From: Candidatus Micrarchaeota archaeon
Lineage (GTDB): Archaea; Micrarchaeota; Micrarchaeia; Burarchaeales; JAKAKT01
Assembly: GCA_043814255.1 (NCBI GenBank)
Contig: JBDRKD010000060.1
Span: 1-43,027, forward strand
Length of the DNA: 43,027 nt
Reading direction: 5' to 3'
Part shown: one piece after another, positions 1-32,808 of the stretch
Layout of the letters: each line of letters begins with the position of its first letter
Numbering within the stretch: position 1 is the stretch's first letter
Notes under the pieces: model-generated
The model's input: the letters and a program-made list of their open reading frames with translations, nothing else
Told to the model about the DNA's origin: nothing
Database searches by the model: none
Made by a program: the position numbers and the translations under genes

Positions 1-474
1 GTCTATCCAATGACGCTCATCCTGGACTCCCAGATATACGCATCAGTCTACAAGATACCCAAGACGGAATACCATAGCAACAAGCTGCCGCTTGATGATT
101 TTGATATGGGCATATGGATGGACCTGTTCATGGGCCCGAACTTCGGCAAATGGTGCAAGCACTGGTACGATTGGCTATGGTTCTGCTGGCTGTTTGCAAT
201 AATCGAATGGATAATCAATTTCATAATAGCTATTTTCAAGGCATTCGCGTTTATGCTTGTAGTCATATCTGCGGTGCTGAGGGTAGGCGTAGCGGAAGTC
301 ACGGCAGAGGGATTCGATTATTACGCGCACCTGATACCATGGGCGATGCAACCCATCACAGCGGCGTTCATGTTCCCGGTGCTTAACCTGATAATAGTGG
401 TGACTGCAATAAGGAGCCTTTCAGAGGCAATGGGGGGAGAGTCAAGGATAACTGGCCTTGCACAGTTCATATGA
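1..474 (+). CDS. Polytopic membrane protein, paralog 0 of the tandem family (5' end outside window)
   Basis: The frame is open from nt 1. The C-terminal region aligns with the downstream paralogs: last TM helix PVLNLIIVVTAIRSLSEAM, then tail GGESRITGLAQFI-stop. Confidence 0.6.
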   Translation, partial: VYPMTLILDSQIYASVYKIPKTEYHSNKLPLDDFDMGIWMDLFMGPNFGKWCKHWYDWLWFCWLFAIIEWIINFIIAIFKAFAFMLVVISAVLRVGVAEVTAEGFDYYAHLIPWAMQPITAAFMFPVLNLIIVVTAIRSLSEAMGGESRITGLAQFI

Positions 475-487
475 GGGTGTGTAGATT

Positions 488-1378
488 ATGGCGATGTATG
501 GATGCAGCATGAATTCGGAATTCTTCGATTGGCTGCCAATAATGTCATTCATGATACTCATAGCGTTGCTCGTCATCTCCCTTGTGTACATGCTTTCCCA
601 GGTATTCAGAAGGCCAGAGTGGTCACTCTGGGCCAAGAGCGAGCTGTGGCACACACTCGCATCCATACTCCTTGTTGGAATCATACTTTCATTCATGGGT
701 GTGGCTTGCCTGGTAGCAGAGAACCTTGCCGGCGGGGACCCATTTTATATAGCTGACAGGTACCTGCACCAGATGATATGGGGAAAGATGGTGCCTGCTG
801 TGGACAACCTTTTCGAGCTCTCATTCAGGGCACAGAAATGGTCTGTCTTTACAATAGGAATCCTTAGCTGCAGTTATGGGGTGTGCTTCCAACCATTCGC
901 CGGTTTCGGAACGCTGAGCTATAATTTCGAGACAATGGCCGCACTAGTCACCCCCTTCGCGGCCAGTCTGCTGTTCCAGAAACTGCTCCTGCAGTTCGTA
1001 AAGGAAATAGCATTCACAATAATCTTCCCAATAGGTTTCATCCTTCGCGTGTTCCCACTCACAAGGGATGCGGGGGCATTCCTGATAGCAGCCGCAATAG
1101 CGTTCTACATAGTGTTCCCATTGACATACGTTTTCAACAATCTTCTCATGCTGGAGGTCCTCCAAGACACGATGCTTGTGGACTGGTGCGATACAGGCAT
1201 GGTTGGCTTTGGAGGCGGGATTTCCGGGCTCGGGTATGCCACATGCCAGGCGCTGAACACGATCGGGCAGATCCTGCCGCAGGCAGTGTTCCTCCCAGCT
1301 CTTAACCTGGTGATAACAATATCGTTTATGCAGACAATCGCGAAGGTGCTTTCGCGGGATTATGAGGAAGACCTATGA
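488..1378 (+). CDS. Polytopic membrane protein, paralog 1
   Basis: ATG at 488 with a GAGGGTG SD-like site upstream. Multiple hydrophobic segments. Family motifs: TM1 ...SLVYML, AKSELW, RVFPLTRDAGAFLIAAAIAFYIVFP, LPALNLVITISF. The long C-terminal tail seen in the other paralogs is absent (ends LSRDYEEDL). Confidence 0.75.
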   Translation: MAMYGCSMNSEFFDWLPIMSFMILIALLVISLVYMLSQVFRRPEWSLWAKSELWHTLASILLVGIILSFMGVACLVAENLAGGDPFYIADRYLHQMIWGKMVPAVDNLFELSFRAQKWSVFTIGILSCSYGVCFQPFAGFGTLSYNFETMAALVTPFAASLLFQKLLLQFVKEIAFTIIFPIGFILRVFPLTRDAGAFLIAAAIAFYIVFPLTYVFNNLLMLEVLQDTMLVDWCDTGMVGFGGGISGLGYATCQALNTIGQILPQAVFLPALNLVITISFMQTIAKVLSRDYEEDL

Positions 1379-2682
1379 GACTGAAATTGCTTGCACTGGC
1401 AGTCCTTCTCCTGCTTTTCGCAGGATGCACAATGAGAAGGCCGGCAGCCGGCACATGTCCAGTTGGCACAGCATGGAATGCAGGTTTCAATTGCTGCGTT
1501 GATGGGGCACTCGTGTGCATGCAGAACAGCACTGCGACAACCCTCATGCTTTGGGAAGATTGGCAACAAATGGCATTCCTGGTCGTGTTGATGGGGTTCC
1601 TCCTAATGGGCCTCATGTACATGGTTGCGTATGCATTCGATTTCAAGGAAGTAATGATATTCGTTAAGAACGAGATGATACAGCTCGCCGTCTCAGCATT
1701 CATTCTCGGAAACGTGTTGTTCTTCGTGTTCCTGCTTGATTCGTTAGCTGAAGAGAACAGCGTATACATTCTGGGAATGCATTCCAATGTGACAGACATC
1801 ACTTCTGACTTAATCAAGAATCCGGATGGCTCATGGACCGTCCAGAACACGCAGAACGCAATAAATGTCTCGGAATACAGGCCGGCCGATGGCAGATGGA
1901 ACATAGTGCAAAAGAATCCAGGGGATACCATCGACTGCCCGTCCCCATGCCACATCTATCTCGCTAGAGGATACCTTGGCATGACGTACGAGAGGATAGC
2001 GGTTATGGCGAGGTCAGTCATAAAATCCTATTCGAGTCTGGTATGGATTGACCGCACCCGGGTTGGGGTGTTCATAAACATCATGGGCGTGGTTGCCCAA
2101 ATTGCAGTTACACTGATGCCGTTCACAGGTTTGTCCATAATATACCATTCGCTCGGAACATGTTTTGATTTCATGGCAAAGGCGATGATTGCCCTCAAGT
2201 TCCAGGAATCGATGCTCATGTATATAGAGAGCGGAATATTCCCGCTGTTCTTAATCGTGGGTATAATTCTCCGGTCCGTGTGGTTCCTGCGGAAGCTGGG
2301 AGGGCTCATGATAGCAATCGCAATAGGGCTTTACACAGTGTTGCCTCTTCTCTATGTGCTCTGCTGGTATACTGTGGACAGCAGCACAGTCACACTCCAA
2401 ATAGATTCTGACATGATCCAGAACGGGGATTTCAGCGTCCCGCTCCTCCCATGGCAATCATCAAACCTGGATGCAGGCGCACTCGAGGACTTCCTTTTCA
2501 CGAAGTATAACGCGGACAATACGGTGGATACGATGGGGTTGCTTGACATCACTTCCAGTTTGATGCTGCCCGCTTTCGCAATCCCGCTGTTAAACATATT
2601 CATAACCATAGCGTTCATAAAAACACTGTCTGCTTCAATAGGTGGAGATATGGAGCTTGCAGGATTGACTAGAATCATATGA
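1375..2682 (+). CDS. Polytopic membrane protein, paralog 2, with lipobox signal and an N-terminal Cys motif
   Basis: ATGA overlap with the upstream stop. N-terminus MRLKLLALAVLLLLFAGC (lipobox-like). CPVGTAWNAGFNCCVDGALVC motif. Family motifs GLMYMV, VKNEMI, LRKLGGLMIAIAIGLYTVLP, IPLLNIFITIAF, tail GGDMELAGLTRII-stop. Confidence 0.8.
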   Translation: MRLKLLALAVLLLLFAGCTMRRPAAGTCPVGTAWNAGFNCCVDGALVCMQNSTATTLMLWEDWQQMAFLVVLMGFLLMGLMYMVAYAFDFKEVMIFVKNEMIQLAVSAFILGNVLFFVFLLDSLAEENSVYILGMHSNVTDITSDLIKNPDGSWTVQNTQNAINVSEYRPADGRWNIVQKNPGDTIDCPSPCHIYLARGYLGMTYERIAVMARSVIKSYSSLVWIDRTRVGVFINIMGVVAQIAVTLMPFTGLSIIYHSLGTCFDFMAKAMIALKFQESMLMYIESGIFPLFLIVGIILRSVWFLRKLGGLMIAIAIGLYTVLPLLYVLCWYTVDSSTVTLQIDSDMIQNGDFSVPLLPWQSSNLDAGALEDFLFTKYNADNTVDTMGLLDITSSLMLPAFAIPLLNIFITIAFIKTLSASIGGDMELAGLTRII

Positions 2683-2693
2683 GGTAAAAGCAT

Positions 2694-3809
2694 ATGGCCA
2701 TAGAAACAGCCCTTATGAGAACGGCTCTCGCAATTATGCTTATGCTCAGCACTGCCTCAGCGGCATGCGAAGGGATGACTTATGGCCCACAGGCTTGGGC
2801 GAATAGCTGGCAGCAGGTTGCGTTCATTGCACTATTGATAGGCTTTTTCATCGTGGGAATGATATATGCGATTGGGATGGGCTTCAGCATGCCCAAACTA
2901 GTCGCTTCTGCAAAAAAGGACCTGATGTATCTTTTATTCATAGCAGTGCTTGCCGGTTCACTAGCAGTCATAGATGACATAATGAACAATACATTCCTCC
3001 CTGCATTCGCAACACAGTCACTCATAGATGCGACTGCGACTAGGCAGAGTGTCACATTCTGCAGCTATGGGGGGATGGCAACATGGGGAGACCTCCAGCA
3101 GCACTCAATAGATTATGTCGAATGCCTGAGGGAGAAGAGCACAACATATTTCGAAGCGCTCATGAACATCAACTTCATACTTGGCTTCGTGTCCTCAATC
3201 ACACTGGTCATAACCCCCCTCGAGCTCATAGGGCTCAGCTTCACCCCTGGTGCCGCCCTGAAGCCGATGATAGATACCCTTGGCTACGGGCTTTATATGC
3301 TCGCCATAAACATAGCGCAACTCAAGACGCAGGAGGTCTTCCTTTGCTTCTCCAGATACTATATGTTCAGAATGGTGCTTCCTGTTGGGATAGCGCTAAG
3401 CGCCCTCCCGATTACGCGTTCAGCAGGAGGGACCCTCATAGCCATAGCAATAGGCTTCTACTTCGTCCTCCCGGTAACATACCTCCTTTCCGAGGAGATA
3501 GTCTACGATTACTGCCTTGCCCATGGGGGCTGCAGTTTCAGCTCATCCTCCCTCGCAATAGCAGCGCAGTTCATGGGCAGTGGACGCGATTTGGTGGAAG
3601 ACATGTTCGAGAGTGGCGGAGCCAGCTCTTCAAGGCTTGTGGATACGTTCTCGCTGGACGGGCCGATGGGGCCAATGATATACGTCATAGGGATAGCGTC
3701 AATGCTGCTTCCCATGGTGTCAATGTTGGTGACACTGATGTTCGTTAAAGCATTCTCAAGAATATTCGGGGCAGAGGCTGATTTCTCTGCAATGATAAAA
3801 ATACTGTGA
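2694..3809 (+). CDS. Polytopic membrane protein, paralog 3
   Basis: ATG at 2694, 8 nt after a GAGGT site at 2681-2685. Motifs GMIYAI, AKKDLM, ALPITRSAGGTLIAIAIGFYFVLP, tail GAEADFSAMIKIL-stop. Confidence 0.8.
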   Translation: MAIETALMRTALAIMLMLSTASAACEGMTYGPQAWANSWQQVAFIALLIGFFIVGMIYAIGMGFSMPKLVASAKKDLMYLLFIAVLAGSLAVIDDIMNNTFLPAFATQSLIDATATRQSVTFCSYGGMATWGDLQQHSIDYVECLREKSTTYFEALMNINFILGFVSSITLVITPLELIGLSFTPGAALKPMIDTLGYGLYMLAINIAQLKTQEVFLCFSRYYMFRMVLPVGIALSALPITRSAGGTLIAIAIGFYFVLPVTYLLSEEIVYDYCLAHGGCSFSSSSLAIAAQFMGSGRDLVEDMFESGGASSSRLVDTFSLDGPMGPMIYVIGIASMLLPMVSMLVTLMFVKAFSRIFGAEADFSAMIKIL

Positions 3810-4804
3810 TGAATATGGGAGACATAATAAATGCATGCGCATCGCCTGAAGACTGGCTTGCCAGCTGGCAGCTTCTCAGCGCAATAGGGCTGATAATGTC
3901 CTGGTTCGTTGTATCCCTGATATATATGATAGGGTCGCTCCTAGATAACATTGGCTTGATGGCAAGGGCAAAGGCAGAGGTCTGGGAAATAATCACAACC
4001 ACAATCATACTTGGGTTAGTCATAGCGCTGGTAACCTCAGCATGCACATTCGAGATCGGTTCCATGGGCGCAGCAGCCACATCCGGCAACATGTTCGATG
4101 TTGCAGAGAACTACCTCCTCTGGCTTAGGAACTATACAATCTCCGTGTTCAAGGACCTGATGACAATGAACAGCCTCATATCCGTACTGCTTTCAGTTAT
4201 GGGTGGGTTCCAGATATATGGCATTGGCATCGTGGGCCAGCCGTTTGCAGGGCTGCAACCCATCATGAACCTGATGAACCTGTTCATGAACGGCATCATG
4301 ATATGCCTCATCATTTCAATTGCCCAGATAACTGTCCTGAAGTTCATACAGGCAGGTGCATTCAACATCCTCCTTCCAATTGGGATAGTCTGCCGTTCCT
4401 TCCCATTCACAAGAAGGTTTGGGGGGTCCATGATAGCTCTCGCCATCGGCCTCTTCATAATATACCCGTTCCTACTTGTCATAAATGATGCAATAATGGG
4501 AACGCCAAGCAACAATCCAACTAACGTACCCACAATAAACTATAGCATAATGGATGCCATCACAGGCAACCTCATGAGCCTTGGCTTCGGGCTTATAACC
4601 GGAGGGGTAGGTTTCCTCTATGCAATAGCGGATATACTTACAACATACTTCGTTCAGAAGCCCGTCACCGCCATAGGGCAGGTTGCACTTGCAGCGTTCA
4701 TACTGCCCGCTCTGAACAGCGTCGTGTTCGTTATGGCGGTGCGTGACCTCTCGAGAATACTCGGACAGGAGGTTGACGTGACAAGCATGAGCAGAATGGT
4801 TTAA
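3809..4804 (+). CDS. Polytopic membrane protein, paralog 4
   Basis: The ORF-track start at 3806 is GTG. The first ATG is at 3809 and shares 1 nt with the upstream TGA (TGATG). Motifs SLIYMI, AKAEVW, SFPFTRRFGGSMIALAIGLFIIYP, LPALNSVVFVMAV, tail GQEVDVTSMSRMV-stop. Confidence 0.8.
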   Translation: MNMGDIINACASPEDWLASWQLLSAIGLIMSWFVVSLIYMIGSLLDNIGLMARAKAEVWEIITTTIILGLVIALVTSACTFEIGSMGAAATSGNMFDVAENYLLWLRNYTISVFKDLMTMNSLISVLLSVMGGFQIYGIGIVGQPFAGLQPIMNLMNLFMNGIMICLIISIAQITVLKFIQAGAFNILLPIGIVCRSFPFTRRFGGSMIALAIGLFIIYPFLLVINDAIMGTPSNNPTNVPTINYSIMDAITGNLMSLGFGLITGGVGFLYAIADILTTYFVQKPVTAIGQVALAAFILPALNSVVFVMAVRDLSRILGQEVDVTSMSRMV

Positions 4805-4820
4805 TGAGCAGAATGGTTTA
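4787..4820. repeat. Exact 17-bp tandem duplication (atgagcagaatggttta x2) across the stop codon of paralog 4
   Basis: Read directly: 4787-4803 is identical to 4804-4820. Copy 1 encodes the last residues MSRMV plus the stop. Copy 2 lies in the spacer and runs into the SD of the next gene. Confidence 0.9.
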
Positions 4821-4829
4821 GGTGAACAC

Positions 4830-5864
4830 ATGGTATGGAACACCACTGCAGCGGACATGGCGCAGAGCCTTGGGAACCCGTCATTCAGCTGGGCGGCATT
4901 CGCCCTAATGGCAGTTCTCATGCACTTCCTGATTCTCTCAATCCTCTACATGATATCCAAGGCATTCAGCATACATGACCTGTATAAGTGGACCAGGAGC
5001 GAGCTTGCCCAGGCAGTGGCGTCAGCAGTATTGATTGGCCTGTTGTTCAGTGTCGTTGCCGGAGAATCATTCGGGATCGCATTCCTCCAGAACCAGACTG
5101 AACTCATGGCGGGCAGCATTCTCATGCCCGGGGCAGCAGGAGCAACATCAATAGAGGTGCGCGCAGACCCATTCATAGCGTCATACGCGTTCCTCAGGAA
5201 CATGCTCGAATGCGTTAAGACCAAATACATGGACGAATTCAGGCACAACAGGCTTAGGGAGATGGCGCTCTCGATAATCATAACAATACAGATATTCGGG
5301 ATTAAGATCCCAATAGAGCTCAGCATGATTCTCATACCCATATACCAGAAGATGGTACTGTCGCATTATATGGCAAACAACTACACTTGGCTCGCGATCG
5401 CACTGTACTTCCAGATTCATTTCCTGAAGTGGGTGGAGACAGCGATGTTCACAGTCTATCTCCCGTTGGGCATAATCCTCCGCATATTCCCATGGACAAG
5501 GGGCGCAGGCGGTCTGCTCATAGCATTGGCAATAGGGCTTTACCTTGTCTACCCCCTGATGTTCATTATAATCATTGCCAGTTCCGGCTCTGCTCCGGAA
5601 GGGTGCCAAGCAGTGCCAATAACAGTGCAGAGGAACCTGTGTACGACGGATCCGTCATCGTTTGTGGACCTGATAGAAGCAGCAAAGGCAGAGTCATCGC
5701 TGCGCACAGGAAGCCTCGGAGGACCTGCATCTTCGATGATAATATTCGGGTTCTTCTATCCGTTCACCATACTGGTGGTGGTCTTTGCGTTCGTTCGTTC
5801 TCTTGCCCCATTCCTCGGTGCGGACATAGCTGAGATGGGCAGAGGTCTATTCAGGATGATTTGA
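4830..5864 (+). CDS. Polytopic membrane protein, paralog 5
   Basis: ATG at 4830 with AGGTGA at 4819-4824. Motifs SILYMI, TRSELA, IFPWTRGAGGLLIALAIGLYLVYP, tail GADIAEMGRGLFRMI-stop. Confidence 0.8.
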   Translation: MVWNTTAADMAQSLGNPSFSWAAFALMAVLMHFLILSILYMISKAFSIHDLYKWTRSELAQAVASAVLIGLLFSVVAGESFGIAFLQNQTELMAGSILMPGAAGATSIEVRADPFIASYAFLRNMLECVKTKYMDEFRHNRLREMALSIIITIQIFGIKIPIELSMILIPIYQKMVLSHYMANNYTWLAIALYFQIHFLKWVETAMFTVYLPLGIILRIFPWTRGAGGLLIALAIGLYLVYPLMFIIIIASSGSAPEGCQAVPITVQRNLCTTDPSSFVDLIEAAKAESSLRTGSLGGPASSMIIFGFFYPFTILVVVFAFVRSLAPFLGADIAEMGRGLFRMI

Positions 5865-6619
5865 TGGACGAGAACAATCTCATTGTGAGGAACAAGCGCG
5901 TGGTTGTGCAGATGGTCCTAGCGGCCATAATGATTCTCACTGGAGTTATATTACTTCAGATGAGCCAAAGAGCGCCAGAGTTTACTGGGCAGGATTTTAC
6001 TACAATTGGGAACACTTCGGAGAACACAAGCGTTTTCAGGCAACCCGAGTTTACAGAGGTAGGGAACTGCACGCCGCTTTTCAATTCATCACGGAGGATG
6101 TCATATGCATATGATATCTCCTCACCATCCCCGGAAGGCACGATAAGCATGCGGATATCATATGATTTCATAGGCCAGGAATCAGTTGATGGGCGTCTTA
6201 TTGACATTATAGAGATAACAGCCAACGGTTCGCATAAGGGCCTCACAATGGACCCCGTGTGGAGGATGTGGCTCGATTCCGAAACAGGCCAATGCATCGA
6301 AGCAGTCCTTAATATGGGGGGGGGTTCCATCTCACCATCCGACGTTCCTGGGGGAAGCAAGTACATGCTCCCGATGGACTGCAAGGAGGCGCAGTTTGGC
6401 ATGCCAGTTGTCGTGTGCGAGGAACAGATGGAGGGCCTCTCACCAGTCGCAACCGAAACAGTTAAAGTACCTGCCGGTGAATTCCAAACAGAGAGGTATG
6501 AAACACCGAATGATGAAACGATGTGGATTGCATACGGGATGCCAATCCCAGTCAAGTTCATGTTCAAATCAATGGGAGATTATGCGGTTTCCGAATTGAT
6601 ATATTACGAGGAGAAATGA
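5864..6619 (+). CDS. N-terminally TM-anchored protein with a ~210-aa extracytoplasmic domain, unknown function
   Basis: The track start at 5861 is TTG. ATG at 5864 overlaps the upstream TGA (TGATG). Single hydrophobic helix VVVQMVLAAIMILTGVILLQM, then a soluble domain with sequons (NTS, NCT, NSS, NGS). Contains a G9 homopolymer at 6316-6324. Confidence 0.75.
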   Translation: MDENNLIVRNKRVVVQMVLAAIMILTGVILLQMSQRAPEFTGQDFTTIGNTSENTSVFRQPEFTEVGNCTPLFNSSRRMSYAYDISSPSPEGTISMRISYDFIGQESVDGRLIDIIEITANGSHKGLTMDPVWRMWLDSETGQCIEAVLNMGGGSISPSDVPGGSKYMLPMDCKEAQFGMPVVVCEEQMEGLSPVATETVKVPAGEFQTERYETPNDETMWIAYGMPIPVKFMFKSMGDYAVSELIYYEEK

Positions 6620-9600
6620 TGAAAAACACCATACCATTGTTGTTCGCGTTCCTGCTCCTGGCAGGCTGCTTCAACATGACTCCGCGCACAGACACCCCTG
6701 ATGAGGTTATCGTCACCATCACATCCACAAAGAACTGCACTGATGCGAATTGCACTTGCCTGGTGGAAGAGAGGAGGGGGAGGTACCAATGGTGGACATG
6801 CGAGGTAGGCTATGGTGTCGGCGGGGCATTCGCAGAGGCCGGAATATACAACAGCACGCAGGGAGACTACTGCGAGGACATCAGGGTTGGCGGTCTTCCA
6901 TCACGGGTATGCCTTTCATACGTGACAGTTGACCCCTGGTACTGGGTGAAGGCGGATTGCACCTGGACGTGCGGGGACAAGTGGTTTGCATCATGCGCCC
7001 CACCATTTGGGGGATGGCATTCTGGGCAATGTGAGCTTAAATGCATTCAATATTGCGGGTGGCCAACTCCATTCGGCTGCGCTGGCAGATGCCATTGCCA
7101 CGGAATTAAAGAGAGTAGGGCGCAGCCATGCCCTCTAATTACAACAGACTTTGACTGCACATGTCTCCGTTACACCGGTAGCGTAGGGGAAGTCCCATGC
7201 ATGGGGACAGGTCCTGCCGGAGTTGGCTGTGAAGTCATAGGCCCGGCGCTCTATATCGATATATTTGGCACTACCGTTCCATTCTGTTGCCGTCTTAACT
7301 GCACAGACATCGTTCCGGCCAGCTACATGTGCCACAACCAGACCAGCGGCTCAGACATGTTCTTCCAGAAATGCAGCATCCATTATGAGGGTTCATTGCA
7401 GGGGGGCAGGTTCCATGTAGTCAACCCATGCAATGCAACTGCGATGCAGAACATCGTGCAGGACCCGTTGAGGGAGATACCCTTCTTCATGATTGGGCAG
7501 GGAGCTACGCTTGATGCATTCCTGAGGGCAAAAGAATACTGCTCGCCACTCCACAAGTATGAATACACCATCGAGCTCGGGGACACTGTTTTCCACCCAC
7601 CTGGGCTGAACATAACCAACACATCAAGAATCTGCTTTGAGAGCGACAATGTCGCCCATGACCTTTTGCTTGATGGCGGGGCTAATGGGTCATTCAACCT
7701 GACCAAGCATATATGCATAGACGACCTCGTAATCAACACGCCTGCCACAGAACGCCACGTGATGTCCCACAGGTTCACCGGAGAGACATGCGATATCGAC
7801 GTAAGCGCAGACGGCCACCTATATGTGGATGAAGGGAATTTCACCCCGCAGTACCTCATCTATCCTGAGGGCACGTCATTGGAGATACATAATACAGGTT
7901 CAACAAACCGCCAGCTCAACATGTGGGACAATCAATGGGGAGTCGGTGCGGCAGTAACAACGAACATCGCAAGCTATAGTTCTGCGTTCCCAATAGTCAC
8001 TGCAATCGGCCCGAACCTCTTCCAGGATGCTGACAGCAACCACAGTGCGATGGTATTCATCCTGAGTAATGAAAAGAACGTGACTGTCAATGGAGGGGGG
8101 ATGAGCCCAGCAGAGATTGCGATAAGGCAGGGGGAACGAGTCTGCTTCACATGCGCAACAGCAGTTGGGCATATACTTTCTATTTATGAGATGGCAAGCC
8201 CATCAGACCTAATATTCTATGAGAACAAGACGCTTGGCGCCAGCGACATCTGCTGCTGGAGGCCGCCGCCAGGCACATACTTCATCAACGACACTACAAT
8301 AAATGCGAACATAATGCTTTACGTAACTGATAAGAAAACAACGTATGCAGTGCAACTCCAAGATTACCACTTCAACCCGCCCGTGCTAGCACTGCCTAAT
8401 GGAACCGCAGTGTGCTTTGAGAACCCATCCGATTTCGCGCGGGATGTAGAAGTCAGGGAATTAGGCCATACAATCCACATCGCCGCTAAAAACGAGAATT
8501 GCACATACATACCTGCACTTGACCTGCAGCATATAGACGACCCATACACAACATCCAACATGTCCATAGTCATTTACAGCAACCTGTCGACATTCGTGAA
8601 CATCTCAGGCATTGGCGCCCAACCCCAATTCATACAAACAAGCCCAGGCGGAAAACTGTGCTTTGCGAACCTGGACAACATACCTCATGATGTGACAAGC
8701 CTCGGCGCAGTGGATGCGTGTCTCCCATGGGGCGGCAACCCACCTGCTCCAGGAACACTGACAATACTGCCAAATGAGATGGACTGTTTCGATATAGTCG
8801 ACCCGGGAGTGTTCTATTTCTACGAATACTCTGAGCGCATGGACCCGCAAACAGGCAACTTCACAATAACCAACACAACAGTCACGGTCACCGCATCCCA
8901 CCCAGGGAACTACACGTTCTTCATACAGAAGGAACCGCCAGTAAACGGTTCTATTCAACCCCCATCCCATTACCTATTGTCCAATGACACGCTGACTTGG
9001 GCCAATTGTAACTCCACACACCCATGGACAATTGTTGCAAACAAGAACCTGTCAGAGGTTCCGATTCCAATGAATGTTCCGGCTTCCAGCATGACTGATT
9101 GGACAGACTTGATTGTCGGTTCATCAGAACTGACCCTTGTCCACGCTGGAGAGATGAATCTCACTGCAAGGATTTTCGTATCCGACAAGGAGTCTTTCTC
9201 TGAAAAGCTGGACTACCTTTACACAGGGCCCGCGACAAAGAATAACGCAAGCATCCACCTGGCAATTCAGTGGCTGGCCGGGGATATTGGCGATTACACA
9301 CTATGGCTGACGAGATTTATACTCGGGGAAAGGGCAATCACTTCATTCCCAACAGGGCTTAGGAACAGGATTCTTGTCACCCTGTATCCTGAGGACACAT
9401 TTGTCGAAACAATACGCATCCCATCAGGGAGCAACATGACATGGATAAACGTGGATGATGAGGCCCATTGGGTCACCACTTTATGGAATGGCATTTCCAG
9501 TTGGATTCAGCCTTATGGAATGATTGGCGACAGGATAGCTGAATTCGATATGCTCGCAGGCATGTACATACTATCAGAACCATCCTCGGGCATCACATAC

Positions 9601-12600
9601 CCTGTGGAAGCCTATGACCTGAATTGGCAGATAAACGTGAGCATGAGTGCATTTGATCCATCCCCGCTGAACACAAACGTAAGCAAGATGGTGTGCTTCA
9701 ATAACCACGGGGCAGTTCCCAAGATACTGCGCATAACGCCTCCGATTGTAGCGACTTATACTATCGCCGAGGGGGTTCCCTGGAACCCGCCAGATGGCCA
9801 TCACAACGTCTGGGTCCGTGACTCAGGCACCGGCGTGCTGACATGCCCCCACACGTTGTATGTCCCCCCAAATCCCTCCGAATACACCGAAGGCAATATC
9901 ATTGGTTTTGGCTGCGATACAGGGGCATATGAGCTGGTTGAGACCTTGGGCGATACCTGGCGCGGGTCAATACCAGGCGCGGAAGTATCATACCTTGACG
10001 CAATTGGAGTTGGCTGTAATGTCCCGCATACAATCATGACTAATGCAGTTCCTACGGTATTAGCGCCACCTGCTCCAGTCTCCGCACCTGCCCCGGTCAT
10101 CGCAGGAGCAAACTATATCCAACTCTACACCGATAACGGCGGTGTCTCGAGGCAACTGAGACACGCATATTTCGGCAACGCTGTGCAGTTCGGCCTTGTG
10201 CCCCCACCAGTAACGCAGACATTCACGGAAACCAATGTAATTCCAGTGAACACCAGTTCGCCCTTCACATTCACAGATGACCTTCCAACCAATGTCGTTT
10301 CCGCTGTGATGGACATCACATACAACGATTGCGGCGAACTTTACATAAACGGTGCATTTGTGCACGGGAGCTCTGCAGCAGCCCCAACAGCCCCATTCTT
10401 CTGCAACCTAACAGGACCAGCAACGTTCAACGGAATCAACATAATGCCGTTCCTAAACCCAGCGGGGGTAAACACATTTGATTTAATAATGAACAATACG
10501 GTAGGGGGGGACAACGGCTACCAAATCGATATAGCACTGACGTTCTCATCACAACCGATTACAGATGTAGTCCTCCATCCAGGGGACCCAATCTCCTGGG
10601 TGAATCTCGCGGCATGCGGCGGGGACGTCATAGATGTGGAAACATATCTGGAGCCAGTTGAATTGAACATCAGTGCGAAGACAATAGAGTGCTACAATGT
10701 TACAGTCCCTGGGACATATACTGTACAGGACATATCCACCCCGTCAATAGGCTCAATGCAGATAATAGCCGCCGTTGGAGCGGCATTGGGCACGGATTAC
10801 GTCCACCTGATGAGGCTCTCTTCGGATGCGACAGACATCCTGACCACACCCCACAGCACAGTCCGCTGGCACAGTGCAGATGGAGCGGCATACTACCTGC
10901 AGACAATGACCGGGAATGTCACAATTCCAGGGGACTACATCTGGAGCCCGGTAGCATACGGAACGAGCATAATAAACGAGACGCAGACAGGTGCATCCTG
11001 GAGGGTGACTGCCGCGGCAGGGAACTACAGCCAGAGTGTTTTCTACCCAACAAACGTATTCAACCCACCAACAGCTCTCATAAGGCCGGCAACATCAGTA
11101 TGCTTCAGGAACAACGACACAATGGCCCGAACAATCTCGCTGTGCAGATACTTGCCCAACTACACAATCACAGCCCCGCCATGCGATGAATTCTGCAATG
11201 TTTCTTTCCCAACTTATATTAATAATTGGGTGGATCACCCCGCATCCCCTGGCGCAGGATCTACTGATACCTATATTATCAATAACTGGATATACCTAGA
11301 TCCCCAAGATCCTCCGCCTTCCAGCGCAACACTAACTATACTATATGACGATTGCGGAAGCATGCGCATAAACAATGTTCCGGTACCTGCAATGACTGAT
11401 ACTACCTGCCCAACGAATCCACCTGGATGCCCTCCCGCAGGTCCTGTTCCGTGTGGTGATTGGACAGTTGGAGATGTTGCTGCTTACTTGCATGTTGGCT
11501 GGAACAGCATAAGAATAGATGTACTTGATTCATATGGTGCGGACATTGGTTACATAATGGACATCAATGCTCCGCGCAACTACCCGACATGGTCCAGGGC
11601 ATTCGCTACTGGGGAGACCTGGTGCATGGACCCGTCCACATTGCCTGATTACGATCATTCAGTCTGCCCGGACTACAACGGTCCGCCCGCACCGCCTGTG
11701 GCCATATTCAACTTCTCGGACAACGAGACTGCTGACAAGCTGTTGGTCAATCTCACAAACATCTGCGATGGCTCAGAGGTCAAGAGGATATCCGAGAAGC
11801 TCAACAGGTTCGATGATGATATATTCCAGATGCCTGAATTCAACATCTACCCATCATACAACGAGCACGGTCCCTGCTGGCCATCCATAGTGACTTCAGA
11901 AGTGGACCAGACAAATCCGGCATGCATCTGCGCCCAGCTTGAGACAATAACAAGGGAATGCGAGAACTGCACAACTGCACTTGCAGTTGTTTACCCTGAC
12001 CAGAGGGAGCCGTATGTAAACAGCGTCTTCGGCATGTGCGCAGACGATGCAGACATCGCCGCACTGTTCATCGATGCAAACCACCTAATCACAACCCAGC
12101 TCCCGGGTATATGTGATATAAACTGCAACTGCAACTTCACAATGTTCTGGGACAACATAGCTGATTTCAGCAGCTACATACTATACAACTATGGCAAGCC
12201 ATCCACAATCCTTGCTTTCAAGATGGAGGAAAATCCTGCCGCCTGCTGGGACAATGAGACAATAGGGCGGTTGTTCGAGGAGTTCTATCAAGTTCCAGTC
12301 ACGCAACTGGCAGGAAAGGGGCTATTCGGTCTCTCATATGCGTGCTTTGATGATAGGACACTTGCAGGCGATTGTTTCATCCACCTCCCGCCAAACCCAT
12401 CCCCCGCTGGAAAGGCGCTCACAACCGGCGCAAGCAGGGTGCAGCCAGAATTCGATGCATGGTATGGGAAATGTGGGGCGTATTACTATAACTCAGAAGG
12501 GCTTACGATGACGACATTCTCCGGGAACGATACAAACACCACAGTATGCGACAGCTCTCGCATCATGGACCTGTATCAGGAGTATAAGTGCTATGCGGAT

Positions 12601-12603
12601 TAG
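6616..12603 (+). CDS. Giant (~1995 aa) secreted or lipid-anchored Cys-rich, sequon-rich surface protein
   Basis: Start moved from the track's 6523 to ATG 6616 (ATGA overlap with the upstream stop, GAGGAG at 6608-6613). This gives MMKNTIPLLFAFLLLAGC, a lipobox-type signal. It has a Cys-dense N-terminal region, dozens of N-x-S/T sequons, a degenerate repeated strand motif and two YDDCG-type modules. The uninterrupted ~6-kb frame is itself strong coding evidence. Confidence 0.9.
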   Translation: MMKNTIPLLFAFLLLAGCFNMTPRTDTPDEVIVTITSTKNCTDANCTCLVEERRGRYQWWTCEVGYGVGGAFAEAGIYNSTQGDYCEDIRVGGLPSRVCLSYVTVDPWYWVKADCTWTCGDKWFASCAPPFGGWHSGQCELKCIQYCGWPTPFGCAGRCHCHGIKESRAQPCPLITTDFDCTCLRYTGSVGEVPCMGTGPAGVGCEVIGPALYIDIFGTTVPFCCRLNCTDIVPASYMCHNQTSGSDMFFQKCSIHYEGSLQGGRFHVVNPCNATAMQNIVQDPLREIPFFMIGQGATLDAFLRAKEYCSPLHKYEYTIELGDTVFHPPGLNITNTSRICFESDNVAHDLLLDGGANGSFNLTKHICIDDLVINTPATERHVMSHRFTGETCDIDVSADGHLYVDEGNFTPQYLIYPEGTSLEIHNTGSTNRQLNMWDNQWGVGAAVTTNIASYSSAFPIVTAIGPNLFQDADSNHSAMVFILSNEKNVTVNGGGMSPAEIAIRQGERVCFTCATAVGHILSIYEMASPSDLIFYENKTLGASDICCWRPPPGTYFINDTTINANIMLYVTDKKTTYAVQLQDYHFNPPVLALPNGTAVCFENPSDFARDVEVRELGHTIHIAAKNENCTYIPALDLQHIDDPYTTSNMSIVIYSNLSTFVNISGIGAQPQFIQTSPGGKLCFANLDNIPHDVTSLGAVDACLPWGGNPPAPGTLTILPNEMDCFDIVDPGVFYFYEYSERMDPQTGNFTITNTTVTVTASHPGNYTFFIQKEPPVNGSIQPPSHYLLSNDTLTWANCNSTHPWTIVANKNLSEVPIPMNVPASSMTDWTDLIVGSSELTLVHAGEMNLTARIFVSDKESFSEKLDYLYTGPATKNNASIHLAIQWLAGDIGDYTLWLTRFILGERAITSFPTGLRNRILVTLYPEDTFVETIRIPSGSNMTWINVDDEAHWVTTLWNGISSWIQPYGMIGDRIAEFDMLAGMYILSEPSSGITYPVEAYDLNWQINVSMSAFDPSPLNTNVSKMVCFNNHGAVPKILRITPPIVATYTIAEGVPWNPPDGHHNVWVRDSGTGVLTCPHTLYVPPNPSEYTEGNIIGFGCDTGAYELVETLGDTWRGSIPGAEVSYLDAIGVGCNVPHTIMTNAVPTVLAPPAPVSAPAPVIAGANYIQLYTDNGGVSRQLRHAYFGNAVQFGLVPPPVTQTFTETNVIPVNTSSPFTFTDDLPTNVVSAVMDITYNDCGELYINGAFVHGSSAAAPTAPFFCNLTGPATFNGINIMPFLNPAGVNTFDLIMNNTVGGDNGYQIDIALTFSSQPITDVVLHPGDPISWVNLAACGGDVIDVETYLEPVELNISAKTIECYNVTVPGTYTVQDISTPSIGSMQIIAAVGAALGTDYVHLMRLSSDATDILTTPHSTVRWHSADGAAYYLQTMTGNVTIPGDYIWSPVAYGTSIINETQTGASWRVTAAAGNYSQSVFYPTNVFNPPTALIRPATSVCFRNNDTMARTISLCRYLPNYTITAPPCDEFCNVSFPTYINNWVDHPASPGAGSTDTYIINNWIYLDPQDPPPSSATLTILYDDCGSMRINNVPVPAMTDTTCPTNPPGCPPAGPVPCGDWTVGDVAAYLHVGWNSIRIDVLDSYGADIGYIMDINAPRNYPTWSRAFATGETWCMDPSTLPDYDHSVCPDYNGPPAPPVAIFNFSDNETADKLLVNLTNICDGSEVKRISEKLNRFDDDIFQMPEFNIYPSYNEHGPCWPSIVTSEVDQTNPACICAQLETITRECENCTTALAVVYPDQREPYVNSVFGMCADDADIAALFIDANHLITTQLPGICDINCNCNFTMFWDNIADFSSYILYNYGKPSTILAFKMEENPAACWDNETIGRLFEEFYQVPVTQLAGKGLFGLSYACFDDRTLAGDCFIHLPPNPSPAGKALTTGASRVQPEFDAWYGKCGAYYYNSEGLTMTTFSGNDTNTTVCDSSRIMDLYQEYKCYAD

Positions 12604-12623
12604 TAGGGGTAGTAGGTGATTTG

Positions 12624-14984
12624 ATGGCAATGCTCAGTGGCGATGATTGGAAGAGCAATCTTGCTCTTATTGTAGGCGGGGCCATATTGCTTTCGCTCCT
12701 GGCGTACGTATGCACCCACAGCTGCCCTGCTGGTTCAACATGGGACTTCAATAAATCATGCTGCGTTGATGCGTTCGGCAACTGCATAACGAAATGTTTC
12801 CCAGATGTTCTTGATGCGGCTTGTGACGCAAAGTGCCCATGCCACCCTGTTGGAAACCCATGTTCATGCGGATGCGGAAACCTGGTCTGCGAGCCGGGCA
12901 TTGGGGAGGATTGCAACACGTGCCCAGGGGATTGCGGCGTATGCCCCCCTCCGGTTGTTATAACTCCATGTACCCACAACGGCATGCCCTGCGTTGCAAG
13001 TGGAGAATGTTGTTCAAGTAACTGCAACCCACCTGGTTCCGTATGCTGCCCAGGAGGAACACAATGGAGCGGTGCCCTCTCATGCTGTGCAGATCTCATC
13101 AGCGGGATATGCAACTGCTATGGGAATGGCGTTATCTGCGGTGCACCGGCAGAATGCTGCACAGGCAACTGCGACAACAGCCACTGCTGCCCTGTCGGAA
13201 CGATCTGGAATGCAACTGAGAACTGCTGCCAGAACCCTGCAGGCGTATGCGTCTGCTACGGAAAGGGCTCCAGTTGTGCAGGGGATCCTGATTGCTGCGG
13301 TGCACTCTATTGCAGTAACCTGCACTGCTGCCAAGGTTCTGACTATTGGAATGCCGGCCTCTCATGCTGTGCGGATTTGACAACAAACCTATGCTCATGT
13401 TTGGGAAGGTCCCAGCTATGCACAATGCCCGACGAATGCTGCTCAGGAAACTGCGATTCCGGACACTGCTGCCCAACAGGCACAGTATGGGATTCTGTTG
13501 ATAGCTGCTGCAAGAACGCTGCCGGTTCGTGCGTAGGTATGGGGGACTGGGACTGGTATTGCCTAGGAGGCGACGTTAACCTGAGTGCCCTCCCGCCGCC
13601 AACATGCGGAAGCGGTGCGTGCGACCCTGGCGAGACGTGTGCGAGCTGCCCAGGAGACTGCGGTATCTGTCCTACATGCAACGGAAACGGGGTATGCGAT
13701 GTTGGCGAGAACTGCCTCAACTGCCCAGGGGATTGCAGTGTAACTGTCCCTCCAGCTCCTGATTTCTCCCAAACGGTTTCCGAGCAATACGCAACCTCAG
13801 CAGGCAACAACTCAGCCTATTCATTCATAATAACCGTCCCAGTAGGCACAATCAACACAGCAACAATGGACATACGATATGATGACTGCGGGTCAACATC
13901 AATAAACGGAGTGCCTGCTCACGGGGCATATCCATGCGGCACAAATGCAGTGTGGGTGTATGGGATAGACATAACTCCCAACGTACACACTGGCGTCAAC
14001 GTATTCAACCTCATGGTTCATGATACTATAGGGGGCTTTATAGGGTATGATGCGATAATCACAGTCACATACTCTCCAAACACCGAGTGTTGCGGCGATG
14101 GTGCGTGCACAGGCACCGAGACCTGCGTTACATGTACGGGGGACTGCGGGTCTTGTTGCAACGGGGACGGGTTGTGCACAGGGGGCGAGACATGCCTGAC
14201 ATGCCCTGCAGACTGTGCAAACACATACACCCCCTCTCCAGTCACAAAGAGCCTTGTCGTTGTCTCTGCCCCATCAACCCAATGGGATACCGGAACATTC
14301 CTTGAGAACGTCACAATCCCGCCATACCCAATGAGCACGGCCCAATTCACATCAATCTGGTATGATGATTGCGGTACAGTGGAGATAAACGACTTGCTTG
14401 CACACCAGGAGCCGGACTGCAGTGGTTCAGCAACCCCGACATACACAAACATAGATGTCAGGCCATACACATTCCCCGCGTGGAACATCCTGCGCTTCGA
14501 TGTTCAGGACACCCGCACAGGAGGCGCCATAGGCTATAATGTTGATTTCGAAGCGACATTCGCCCCTGTCAGCACTTGCTGCGGAGATGGGATTTGCGAG
14601 GGGCCGGAGACGTGCACCAACTGCCCTGCAGACTGCACAGCACCACCAATAGACATCTCCCAGACATTGGCGTTCTCTGAGGCCAGTGCTATGGGGACCA
14701 TAAGAACATACACAGAAGTACTTACACTATCAAACAACCGCATAAGCACCGCCACAATGGATGTCTGGTATGATGACTGCGGCCAGACGAAATTGAATGG
14801 TTTCATCGTCCACGACAACTTCCCGTGCTCGACACTGGCAACGCCGAAGCAATTCGGCATAGATATGGTTCCATTCCTAGTCCCGGGAAACAATGTTTTC
14901 GAGTTCTGGACAAACGATTCACACGGAGGGGGGAACATCGGCTATGATGTAGATGTAGTAGTAAACTACGCTCCGTGCACATAA
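12624..14984 (+). CDS. Modular Cys-rich surface protein (786 aa): TM/signal anchor, CGxGxC motifs, 4 knottin-like repeats, 3 YDDCG modules
   Basis: ATG at 12624 preceded by AGGTGA at 12614-12619 (the track start 12588 overlaps the upstream gene). Hydrophobic anchor LALIVGGAILLSLLAYV. Internal repeats are described under findings. Confidence 0.88.
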   Translation: MAMLSGDDWKSNLALIVGGAILLSLLAYVCTHSCPAGSTWDFNKSCCVDAFGNCITKCFPDVLDAACDAKCPCHPVGNPCSCGCGNLVCEPGIGEDCNTCPGDCGVCPPPVVITPCTHNGMPCVASGECCSSNCNPPGSVCCPGGTQWSGALSCCADLISGICNCYGNGVICGAPAECCTGNCDNSHCCPVGTIWNATENCCQNPAGVCVCYGKGSSCAGDPDCCGALYCSNLHCCQGSDYWNAGLSCCADLTTNLCSCLGRSQLCTMPDECCSGNCDSGHCCPTGTVWDSVDSCCKNAAGSCVGMGDWDWYCLGGDVNLSALPPPTCGSGACDPGETCASCPGDCGICPTCNGNGVCDVGENCLNCPGDCSVTVPPAPDFSQTVSEQYATSAGNNSAYSFIITVPVGTINTATMDIRYDDCGSTSINGVPAHGAYPCGTNAVWVYGIDITPNVHTGVNVFNLMVHDTIGGFIGYDAIITVTYSPNTECCGDGACTGTETCVTCTGDCGSCCNGDGLCTGGETCLTCPADCANTYTPSPVTKSLVVVSAPSTQWDTGTFLENVTIPPYPMSTAQFTSIWYDDCGTVEINDLLAHQEPDCSGSATPTYTNIDVRPYTFPAWNILRFDVQDTRTGGAIGYNVDFEATFAPVSTCCGDGICEGPETCTNCPADCTAPPIDISQTLAFSEASAMGTIRTYTEVLTLSNNRISTATMDVWYDDCGQTKLNGFIVHDNFPCSTLATPKQFGIDMVPFLVPGNNVFEFWTNDSHGGGNIGYDVDVVVNYAPCT

Positions 14985-25839: not shown

Positions 25840-26537
25840 TGGTCATGTCCCTTCCCAAGCAGATGGTCCCTCTCGTGCACAATGAACTTCGCTGCACGTT
25901 CAAACGATCCAGGTTCTTTGGAGGATGTTTTCACTATCACTGCCTTCGAGTTGATGTTCCCAATATCCTCAAAATATATCTTCTCATCGAACCCAACAGC
26001 TTCAGCCAAATCGTATTTCGAGATAATGACAAGTTCCGCATTCATGAATATGATTGGGTATTTCTTCGGCTTGTCAGAGCCCTCTGTTGTTGAGCTGACC
26101 ACAATGTCAATATGCTGCCCTATCTTCACGCCTGCAGGACATACTAAATTTCCAACATTCTCTATAACCAGATATCCCTTCCCCTCCAGATTCATGTTAC
26201 CCAACGCATCATTTACCATCGCGGCATTCAAATGACAGCCGCTGTGGGTGTTTATCTGGTAACTGTCGACTCCGCGTTTTTCAAGCCGCTCCTTGTCGAT
26301 ATCTGACTCAAGATCCCCTTCGATGACCGCAATCTCGGAGGGGGCGATGTATTTCACAATACTCTCTATGAACGTTGTTTTCCCGCTCCCTGGAGCACCA
26401 AGCACGTTGATGCACAGCATCCCCTTCTCCTTTAGCAAGTGCCAGGTCTTATGCGCAATGGCATCGTTCTCTTCAGTTACTGATCTATTTACTTCAATCC
26501 TGCTCGCAGGTTCATTACATCCACATTCATCACACAT
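25836..26537 (-). CDS. hypB: Hydrogenase nickel-incorporation GTPase HypB
   Basis: The first ATG gives MCDECGC (N-terminal CxxCGC Ni site). P-loop GAPGSGKTT. The track start at 26546 is GTG. Its stop overlaps the hypF stop by 4 nt (convergent genes). Confidence 0.9.
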   Translation of the reverse strand: MCDECGCNEPASRIEVNRSVTEENDAIAHKTWHLLKEKGMLCINVLGAPGSGKTTFIESIVKYIAPSEIAVIEGDLESDIDKERLEKRGVDSYQINTHSGCHLNAAMVNDALGNMNLEGKGYLVIENVGNLVCPAGVKIGQHIDIVVSSTTEGSDKPKKYPIIFMNAELVIISKYDLAEAVGFDEKIYFEDIGNINSKAVIVKTSSKEPGSFERAAKFIVHERDHLLGKGHDH

Positions 26538-26538
26538 T

Positions 26539-26889: not shown

Positions 26890-26894
26890 ACTCA

Positions 26895-28912: not shown

Positions 28913-28916
28913 AAAC

Positions 28917-32760: not shown

Positions 32761-32806
32761 AAACCCAAGTAGGAAGCAATAAATACAGTGGAAATTATAG
32801 TTGAAA
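32761..32806 (+). promoter_or_regulatory. Copy 1 of a duplicated 46-bp promoter/leader element
   Basis: 42 of 46 nt match 37491-37536, including a 29-nt perfect core caataaatacagtggaaattatagttgaa. It contains aataaata (TATA-like) ~25 nt before ATG 32809 and ends 2 nt before that ATG. Confidence 0.6.
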
Positions 32807-32808
32807 TC

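Follow-up and report, generated by a model that had tools for sequence, protein, structure and literature searches.

The subject of this study is a gene block at positions 1-14984 of a 43,027-nt stretch of contig JBDRKD010000060.1, from a Candidatus Micrarchaeota archaeon; this whole stretch is referred to below as the window. The block is an uninterrupted series of nine consecutive open reading frames (ORFs) on the plus strand, numbered g1-g9 in order. The first six encode members of one membrane-protein family, and the last three encode an anchored protein and two large surface proteins. The labels L001, L004, and so on denote the related loci with which the block was compared. The nine ORFs are listed below with their matches to the family hidden Markov model (HMM) or other evidence.

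g1, 1..474, plus strand: position-1 paralog, C-terminal 157 amino acids (aa) (family HMM, 2.5e-11)
g2, 488..1378, plus strand: position-2 paralog, 296 aa, membrane protein with five transmembrane (TM) segments (family HMM, 7.4e-77)
g3, 1375..2682, plus strand: position-3 paralog, 435 aa (family HMM, 9.8e-67)
g4, 2694..3809, plus strand: position-4 paralog, 371 aa (family HMM, 1.1e-74)
g5, 3806..4804, plus strand: position-5 paralog, 332 aa (family HMM, 9e-99)
g6, 4830..5864, plus strand: position-6 paralog, 344 aa (family HMM, 1e-69)
g7, 5861..6619, plus strand: bitopic anchored protein, 252 aa (ortholog alignment)
g8, 6616..12603, plus strand: giant surface protein, 1995 aa (Cupredoxin_1 match, repeat detection)
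g9, 12588..14984, plus strand: TM-anchored protein with 11.9% Cys, 798 aa counted from GTG 12588

An earlier note on this DNA had counted ten genes and seven membrane paralogs; the ORF map gives nine and six, respectively, and the first paralog runs off the window edge. The tight same-strand arrangement that it described was borne out by the ORF map and by the junction gaps, which were 13, -4, 11, -4, 25, -4, -4, and -16 nt from g1 to g9. The stop/start overlaps are present exactly where it had placed them (1375, 3809, 5864, and 6616), namely at 1375 (ATGA), 3806-3809 (GTGATG), 5861-5864 (TTGATG), and 6616-6619 (ATGATG). The start codon of g9 is more likely ATG 12624 than GTG 12588 because of the N-termini of its orthologs, and the spacer between g8 and g9 is then +20 nt. 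The g1 ORF lacks its 5' end, which lies beyond the window edge (frame 1 reads open from the first base), and its product is 69% identical to residues 499-655 of the protein encoded at 4587-6554 in L001. The full-length orthologs of g1 have 584-1310 aa and contain a signal peptide and a Cys-rich N-terminal ectodomain.

A family of six membrane paralogs

The proteins g1-g6 are mutually homologous, as the earlier note had stated: the pairwise BLASTP E-values were 1e-10 to 1e-29, and the matches to the family HMM reached 1e-99. They share a conserved stretch, LP-x-G-x3-R-x-F-P-x-T-R-x-x-G-G-x-L-I-A-x-A-I-G, and a C-terminal tail, L-G-x-E-x-D-x3-L-x-R-x-I. Identity to the orthologs in L001 was 68% for g2 (50% in L004), 56% for g4, and 73% for g6. 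The g3 protein has a lipobox-like signal, LLFAGC, a motif that is kept in its orthologs, and an enlarged first ecto-loop with Cys residues and glycosylation sequons. A family profile search of 1.84 billion representatives gave approximately 3,100 clusters (50% identity) at E<=1e-3 and 2,615 at E<=1e-10. No consistent Pfam match was found among 105 diverse family members, and nothing relevant came from NCBIfam, against which the window paralogs and 12 single-copy members were scanned. The approximately 3,100 clusters are not covered by a Pfam or NCBIfam model and thus constitute a large unnamed family. The named members belong to Micrarchaeota, plus one Aenigmarchaeota sequence. When the family profile was searched against PDB sequences, only rhodopsin noise (E ~0.005) resulted.

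The Pfam, NCBIfam, and PHROGs scans of all nine block proteins detected only one cupredoxin-like repeat in g8, and no block protein gave a PDB-sequence match above threshold, this repeat excepted. The statement of the earlier note that none of the proteins belongs to a recognised family thus stands, apart from the g8 repeat. The domain scans also agree with its observation that the block contains no ATPase, pilin, sortase, S-layer, or ABC domain.

We modelled g5 with AlphaFold2 (AF2) using the 105-sequence alignment (predicted local distance difference test, pLDDT, 90.6; predicted template modelling score, pTM, 0.85). The model is all-helical with very long helices at residues 49-81, 96-129, 148-198, 203-230, and 267-318, which reach outside the membrane, and has a single beta-hairpin at 133-144 in the first ecto-loop. 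Across the 105 homologs, the fraction of lysine plus arginine was 0.20 in the short loop at 46-58 and 0.26 in the short loop at 197-204, and it was 0.035-0.04 in the N-terminus and the two long loops, to which Cys residues and sequons are restricted. These distributions and the helix boundaries of the AF2 model predict a family topology with the N-terminus outside, five TM segments, the C-terminus inside, and ecto-regions of ~105 and ~60 residues. In the predicted topology, the conserved RxFPxTRxxGG loop and the C-terminal tail face the cytoplasm. These two elements are the best-conserved parts of the family, which points to a cytoplasmic partner, and they are candidate docking sites for an ATPase supplied in trans. 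Foldseek searches of the g5 model against PDB and BFVD gave nothing with E<0.1 (best PDB match, E 0.26), and the model resembles no transporter fold in the PDB. The T2SSF domain (FlaJ/TadC/PilC) was found neither in the window proteins nor in the 105 family members.

Conserved six-gene arrays and a secretion-like module in relatives

We scanned ORFs with the family HMM in 29 GTDB-representative loci, 22 metagenome loci, and several contigs. Exactly six tandem members are present in the window and in L001, L004, L005, L009, L013, L014, L016, L017, L018, L020, L021, L025, L031, L036, L046, L058, L060, and L063, so that six-member arrays occur in at least 18 independent loci; the array of L024 has seven members. 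Comparison of 15 arrays showed that the best match of a gene at a given position was the gene at the same position in 159-179 of the 210 comparisons per position (76-85%). This positional orthology indicates six ancient orthogroups in a fixed order, which is the pattern expected of an obligate six-subunit complex. The sequences thus suggest that each of the six paralogs is a separate subunit of the same membrane complex, although the assembly itself is something we infer. Two metagenome-assembled genomes (MAGs) contain two arrays apiece (L008 and L014; L020 and L031).

The genes 3' of the arrays differ by clade and are giant proteins, 2-TM proteins with an ATPase, a FlaI-class ATPase with FtsZ, or nothing notable. 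A single large Cys-rich lipoprotein follows the array in L025, L060, and L061, and the arrays of L005, L016, L018, L021, L036, L046, and L063 are without any giant protein. A FlaI-like ATPase adjoins the array only in L017 and L020. The genes after these two arrays (L017, 12379-16347; L020, 12374-16314) encode a FlaI/VirB11-class ATPase (T2SSE, 7e-36; FlaI, 1.6e-64) and two FtsZ proteins. A gene of ~910-930 aa beside the arrays of L014, L016, L017, and L020 resembles, by eye only, an aminoacyl-tRNA synthetase; in L017 and L020 this divergent gene (~928 aa) precedes the array.

Clustering of all neighbouring genes showed that the family also occurs as a single copy, in nine GTDB and six metagenome loci. 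In these loci, the family gene is preceded by a gene for a small protein (105-135 aa) that has a signal peptide and two hydrophobic helices. It is followed by a gene for a protein of ~250 aa, whose two TM segments are N-terminal, and then by that for an ATPase of 380-510 aa. The same parts surround the six-gene arrays that we designate type B (L005, L021, L036, L044, L046, L048, and L049/L050). The recurrent module can be written as small protein with a signal peptide and two TM segments, one or six family genes, one or two 2-TM proteins, and ATPase, and it was found in L005, L021, L023, L026-L030, L032-L034, L036, L044, L046, L048-L050, L052-L055, L057, L059, and L063; in L005 no ATPase adjoins it. 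The complete genome of Ca. Fermentimicrarchaeum limneticum Sv326 (CP058998.1) has the module around a six-gene array at 28-49 kb, in the order two small proteins, six family genes, two 2-TM proteins, and ATPase.

The small proteins of the module matched PF18895 T4SS_pilin in 12 of 16 cases (best, 9.8e-7) and TrbC/VirB2 in 8 of 16, and the top PDB match of their profile was the R388 pilin TrwL (E 0.0023). Judging from these matches, they are VirB2-like pilins. The ATPase has DUF87/AAA_10/TraG P-loop signatures. Its best NCBIfam matches were CedB (7.8e-22), CedD (5.7e-18), and VirB4-like conjugal ATPases, none of which came near its curated cut-off (for CedB and CedD, 58-78 bits against 600-700); the PDB matches were HerA (2e-20) and VirB4 (4e-14). 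Because the family lies between VirB2-like pilins and a VirB4/CedB-like ATPase, we read it, by its position in a module like a type IV secretion system (T4SS), as the component equivalent to VirB6/CedA/TedA.

Further genes were observed around the module. Arrays of VirB2-like pilin genes lie upstream of the type-B arrays in L036 (881-8973), L048 (6601-7391), and L063 (5546-6296), and L036 1599-3497 encodes a 632-aa protein composed of several pilin units (pilin HMM, 1.3e-60). The single-copy locus L023 (12891-16976), and likewise L028, L029, L030, and L052, has further conserved genes for a protein of ~215 aa, a 3-TM protein of ~100 aa, and a cytoplasmic protein of 720-760 aa; the last has weak Zot/AAA matches and may be a coupling-type NTPase. 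Proteins of ~99 and ~260 aa and an N-terminally anchored protein of ~730-780 aa recur 3' of the VirB4-like ATPase in type-B and some single-copy loci (L046, 10716-14809; L050, 6969-8422; L055, 13053-16465; L063, 17398-21194) and may be parts of the apparatus.

The clade of the window and its surface proteins

Neighbour-joining trees of positions 5 and 2 placed the window in a nested, monophyletic clade with L001, L009, L004, L013, and L031, which we call type A; the type-B arrays and the single-copy genes branch outside it. The nine-gene order recurs in L001, L004, L009, and L031 and partially in L012 and L041, and it is kept at 25-45% protein identity (L004 and L031). Conservation of the neighbourhood, which the earlier note had asked about, therefore holds for the nine genes among relatives; the conserved core is the six-paralog array, and g7-g9 belong to one clade only. 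Among the loci compared, homologs of g7-g9 were found only in the type-A context, with g9 orthologs in L001, L004, and L009. A search for an upstream ATPase through the orthologous loci, also proposed in the earlier note, found none: the gene upstream of the full-length g1 ortholog is UbiA in L001 and a large, divergent gene (1454 aa) in L004.

The surface proteins diverge faster than the membrane subunits. Identity between the window and L001 is 56-73% for the membrane subunits and 38-43% for g7-g9; the N-terminal 1200 aa of g8 are 41% identical, and its distal ~800 aa are not alignable. The ortholog alignment of g7 shows a conserved 'RN' N-terminal tail, one TM segment, four invariant Cys residues, and conserved sequons. 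No significant sequence or fold match to g7 was found, and a metagenome scan with the g7 alignment was blank. We considered g7 as a VirB8-like protein (NTF2 fold) and rejected this assignment, as its model, although poor, is all-beta and no VirB8 match was obtained.

The g8 protein has a lipobox-like signal, LLLAGC, that is kept in its orthologs, and its N-terminal 300 aa and C-terminus are Cys-rich. It contains 52 N-X-S/T sequons against 18.9 expected. The Cupredoxin_1 match (2.7e-7, 31 bits) is above the gathering threshold, and iterative repeat detection seeded on it gave approximately ten tandem cupredoxin-like beta-sandwich repeats of ~100 aa at residues 299-1564. The g9 protein has a TM anchor, 11.9% Cys, and CCxxG/CGDGxC knots. 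The description of both giants as Cys-dense and sequon-rich in the earlier note was accurate only in part: g8 is rich in sequons and has 3.8% Cys, and g9, for all its Cys content, has fewer sequons than expected (6 versus 7.8). A ~100-aa 'YDDCG...NG...GY' module occurs in two copies in g8 and in three in g9. Residues 340-383 of g9 are 56% identical to residues 87-128 of the L001 g1 protein (E 3e-8), so that a Cys motif is common to g9 and the ectodomain of the position-1 subunit. The possibility that g8 or g9 is the Micrarchaeota S-layer protein was rejected, since neither the whole proteins nor 300-aa slices of them matched an S-layer domain (e.g. PF05123).

The nearest relatives of every window protein examined are encoded in Candidatus Micrarchaeota MAGs, and the rest of the window resembles an ordinary chromosome, with an Lhr-type helicase gene convergent to g9 and a HypF gene. 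The GC content is ~0.50-0.53 over the first 19 kb, which hold the block and the Lhr helicase gene, and falls to 0.40-0.46 past 33 kb. An island-like origin of the block does not account for this drop, as the adjoining Lhr gene has the same higher GC content. The HypF gene (23671-25839; PDB 4g9i, 5.5e-166) is followed by genes assigned by eye only to HypB (25836-26546, minus strand), HypE (26895-27932, minus strand), and HypD (27872-28939, minus strand); this hydrogenase-maturation set at 23671-28939 is notable for a Micrarchaeota-like genome-reduced organism. Three further candidates for secreted or surface proteins lie at 29807-32662, 32788-33444, and 37859-39070. Among them is a protein of 951 aa that has a CARDB adhesion domain (1.8e-8); the other two are Cys-rich proteins with signal peptides, one of which has a borderline Pacifastin_I match. 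The translation of 41159-42058 (minus strand) contains the Fic motif HPFGDGNGR; L005 also has a Fic gene beside its array.

A possible host-contact platform and its alternatives

The explanation that we favour, with a confidence that is evenly balanced, is that the block encodes a hetero-oligomeric membrane platform of T4SS/Ced-like origin, which is linked to adhesin-like surface proteins and serves contact with a host. The six paralogs would build one hetero-oligomeric ring or platform that is conserved across Micrarchaeota and descended from the polytopic component of a chromosomal T4SS-like or Ced/Ted-like apparatus. This apparatus would consist, in relatives, of VirB2-like pilins, one or two 2-TM proteins, and a VirB4/CedB-like ATPase. 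These partners are not encoded alongside the array in the type-A clade, where it is translationally coupled to g7, g8, and g9. The g7 protein could act as a bitopic adaptor, and g8 and g9 would be fast-evolving, membrane-tethered, disulfide-rich surface proteins, g8 being heavily N-glycosylatable. Rapid diversification and disulfide stabilisation of g8 and g9 are the profile expected of host-recognition adhesins of an episymbiont. The platform would anchor and organise adhesin-like stalks at the site of contact with the host cell, and it may double as a membrane conduit at this site, energised in trans if at all. The data show the paralogy, the six-fold positional orthology, the synteny, the topology, and the tie of the family to T4SS-like genes, whereas homology to VirB6, formation of a hetero-oligomer, physical coupling to g7-g9, and a role in host contact are inferred. 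The earlier note had proposed a membrane platform that displays an adhesin; this is still a reasonable reading, to which the T4SS-like link found in relatives must be added.

Its suggestion of a comparison with VirB6/TrbL/CedA was a productive lead. VirB6 alignments were rebuilt from plasmid records (A. tumefaciens, Sinorhizobium, R388 TrwI, IncN TraD, Pseudomonas, and Xanthomonas) and compared with the family. Two weaker points agree with a very remote relationship. The sole segment aligned by hhalign pairs the family LP..G...R.F..TR with the VirB6 invariant GP...F..TR in the same register in all four runs; it corresponds to g5 residues 189-218 (loop 3, after the third TM segment) and VirB6 residues ~177-208, and its P values of 0.07-0.27 are not significant. 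The second point is topology: the plan predicted for the family, with the N-terminus out, five TM segments, a large central loop, and the C-terminus in, agrees with that reported for A. tumefaciens VirB6 from topology studies. The family occupies the position of VirB6 and probably works like it. Our claim goes no further; no direct homology to VirB6 was found, and we do not claim membership.

Several results weigh against the favoured explanation. The PF04610 (TrbL/VirB6) domain was detected neither in the window proteins (E<=1) nor in the 105 family members (E<=0.01), and the four hhalign runs against two VirB6 alignments gave probabilities of 0.2-0.8%. In the Foldseek search with the g5 model, TrwI/VirB6 (7o3v_J) was at rank 5 with E 0.66, TM-scores of 0.20/0.24, and a root-mean-square deviation of 13.7. 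Genes for pilin-like, 2-TM-like, or VirB4-like proteins were found neither in the 43-kb window nor within 10 kb of the other type-A arrays; with no adjoining ATPase, secretion by the window array is without a demonstrated energy source. The AF2 model of g7, with an all-beta ectodomain, is unreliable (pLDDT 54.8). The adhesin and carbohydrate-binding module (CBM) labels rest on weak matches: the best PDB profile matches of the 'YDDCG' module were CBM67/CBM35 with E ~0.05, which is only a hint that these modules are CBM-like.

The known systems closest to this arrangement share some of its features. The Ced/Ted systems for archaeal DNA import are domesticated T4SSs with a VirB6-like CedA/TedA, a VirB2-like pilin CedA1/TedC, and a VirB4-like ATPase CedB/TedB (PMC9905601). 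They are likewise archaeal and chromosomal, and the relatives of the window family have the same minimal set of pilin, polytopic protein, and ATPase, plus the 2-TM protein(s); the ATPase of these relatives is of the VirB4/HerA class with CedB and CedD as best NCBIfam matches. However, the polytopic component is one gene in Ced/Ted and six ordered paralogs here, the window clade has giant surface proteins and no adjoining pilin or ATPase, and the ATPase scores are far below the CedB/CedD cut-offs. The Ced/Ted hosts are Thermoproteota, whereas the window host is a DPANN archaeon. The likeness to VirB6/TrbL/TrwI lies in the same position in the gene set, in the plan with N-terminus out, five TM segments, and C-terminus in, which on the VirB6 side is as reported, and in the short P...F..TR motif aligned after the third TM segment. 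In contrast, there is no significant sequence, profile, or fold match, and the invariant Trp of VirB6 is not conserved in the family. TrwI differs further in forming a homo-pentamer with VirB5, and no VirB5-like gene was seen in the loci compared here.

Multiplication of the VirB6-position component has a precedent in the Rickettsia rvh T4SS, which has five VirB6 paralogs (PMC2653234). In both systems the component forms ordered, divergent paralogs, some with large extra domains, in a host-dependent, genome-reduced organism whose secretion genes are scattered over the chromosome and not gathered in one operon. The rvh system is, however, bacterial and diderm, its paralogs keep a recognisable TrbL/VirB6 domain and number four to five instead of six, and no giant Cys-rich adhesins are coupled to them. 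Patescibacteria, epibionts of the candidate phyla radiation (CPR), have an essential chromosomal T4SS with arrays of VirB2 pilin paralogs (PMC12102498). This T4SS is vertically inherited in ultrasmall episymbionts, has been proposed to serve host interaction and not plasmid transfer, and has tandem divergent VirB2-like pilins comparable with those of L036, L048, and L063; it differs in being bacterial and in having a single recognisable VirB6/PrgH and no six-paralog array. Nanohaloarchaeota, another DPANN lineage, have very large membrane-anchored, adhesin-like surface proteins composed of beta-sandwich repeats, the 'SPEARE' proteins, which include a VirB4/TraG-like ATPase domain (PMC10266531). 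In that lineage, as here, giant surface proteins have a genomic link to components of the T4SS type. The giant protein of SPEARE itself contains the ATPase, and no paralog array has been described for it, whereas the giants of the window are tied to the polytopic component and no ATPase adjoins them. A further computationally predicted envelope system, the arCOG01314 complex, combines a MoxR ATPase, vWA proteins, Ig-like S-layer-like proteins, and 5-TM proteins (PMC5898192). The 5-TM proteins and large Ig-like surface proteins are points of likeness, and one related locus, L005, has a MoxR ATPase upstream of its array. Proteins of the DUF4350/GldG-like, vWA, and MoxR types are absent from the window and from most related loci, among them L001 and L004, and MoxR was found only in L005; a link to the MoxR/vWA predicted secretion complex is unsupported beyond this locus.

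We weighed four other explanations, each of which we consider less likely than the T4SS/Ced-like platform. The array could be an anchoring or biogenesis socket for giant disulfide-rich glycoproteins, similar to S-layer stalks, with no translocation and with T4SS ancestry that is now irrelevant. The absence of a nearby ATPase or pilin in type-A loci would fit such a socket, as would the single large Cys-rich lipoprotein after the arrays of L025, L060, and L061 and the motif that the Cys-rich ectodomain of subunit 1 has in common with g9; the mode of anchoring of the Micrarchaeota S-layer protein is unknown (PMC8975820). However, g8 and g9 have anchors of their own (a lipobox-like signal and a TM segment) and no S-layer domain match (PF05123), many arrays have no giant protein (the seven loci named above), and the most conserved parts of the family are cytoplasmic and point to a cytoplasmic partner. 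We regard the socket as unlikely. Uptake of hydrophobic molecules or glycans from the host, with the array as a permease, g7 as a LolA-type open-beta-barrel binding protein, and g8 and g9 capturing or tethering the source, is very unlikely in our view. The ectodomain of g7 is predicted to be all-beta, its top Foldseek neighbours (non-significant) are LolA-like, EPDR1, YmcC, and lipocalin folds, and Micrarchaeota rely on their hosts for lipids and sugars (PMC8975820; bioRxiv 10.1101/2021.04.28.441871). The g7 model has a pLDDT of only 54.8, however, and all its matches have E>0.06, so that the resemblance is not evidence; moreover, the g5 model is unlike any transporter fold in the PDB, and the family in relatives is tied to pilins and a VirB4-like ATPase and not to transport genes.

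That the array and g7-g9 are mere neighbours with independent functions is similarly improbable. Because genes lie close together in small genomes, a common function is not proven by short spacers and 4-nt overlaps, and the accessory genes after the array vary between clades. On the other hand, start and stop codons overlap at g6/g7 and g7/g8, g7 homologs were found only directly after type-A arrays, the gene order is maintained in L004 and L031 at 25-45% protein identity, and g9 and subunit 1 have a common domain. We give very little credence to the last alternative, in which the block is the cargo or machinery of an integrated conjugative or mobile element. Single-copy relatives with VirB4-like ATPases lie near toxin-antitoxin genes (e.g. 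PIN and RHH in L023 and L034), the Mia14 genome paper refers to membrane proteins of islands as 'likely conjugative elements' (PMC5498576), and the first 19 kb of the window have a higher GC content than its later part. These points are countered by housekeeping flanks in conserved synteny, namely the Lhr helicase gene (window and L001), which has the same higher GC content, and the ~910-930-aa gene taken by eye for a synthetase (L014, L016, L017, and L020). The six-fold positional orthology is phylum-wide, arrays of one locus type group together in the phylogeny, which gives no hint of recent transfer, and the window scans gave no relaxase, integrase, or PHROG match. A mobile-element or viral origin of the block is not supported.

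Returning to the T4SS/Ced-like platform, we found no description of the family, the six-gene array, or a Micrarchaeota T4SS-like system in full-text literature searches. The nearest published statements are generic, being the 'likely conjugative elements' of Mia14 (PMC5498576) and a different predicted secretion complex (PMC5898192). The claim of the earlier note that the system is undescribed thus stands as regards published descriptions, and it is qualified by the tie of the family, in relatives, to VirB2-like pilins and a VirB4/CedB-like ATPase. Contact sites and filaments of Micrarchaeota have been imaged with no machinery assigned to them (PMC8975820), and an S-layer protein has been described for Ca. 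Micrarchaeum harzensis (bioRxiv 10.1101/2021.04.28.441871). A more far-reaching version, which we consider doubtful, is that the six paralogs form a pseudo-symmetric hetero-hexameric channel of VirB6-like descent, which together with g7 and the giant glycosylated, disulfide-rich stalk proteins would be the contact organelle long sought in Micrarchaeota, an envelope structure for attachment to Thermoplasmatales-type hosts and for uptake of lipids, DNA, or metabolites.

It is an open question how attachment and exchange of material between DPANN archaea and their hosts come about, and the six-gene system supplies a phylum-wide candidate. It comprises an unannotated family, a fixed six-subunit architecture, and a genomic tie to VirB2-like pilins and VirB4/CedB-like ATPases, and one clade couples to it fast-evolving giant adhesin-like proteins, the sort of component that would be expected to determine host specificity. 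The system, in our reading a T4SS/Ced-like derivative, may well be the apparatus with which Micrarchaeota contact their hosts, and the candidate is testable in cultivated Ca. Micrarchaeum harzensis, Mia14, and ARM-1. Such an apparatus would extend the archaeal T4SS-derived systems beyond Ced/Ted and would be an archaeal counterpart to the proliferation of VirB6 in Rickettsiales and to the essential T4SS of CPR epibionts. If the contact-organelle version is true, DPANN archaea and CPR bacteria would each have repurposed conjugation machinery for episymbiosis.

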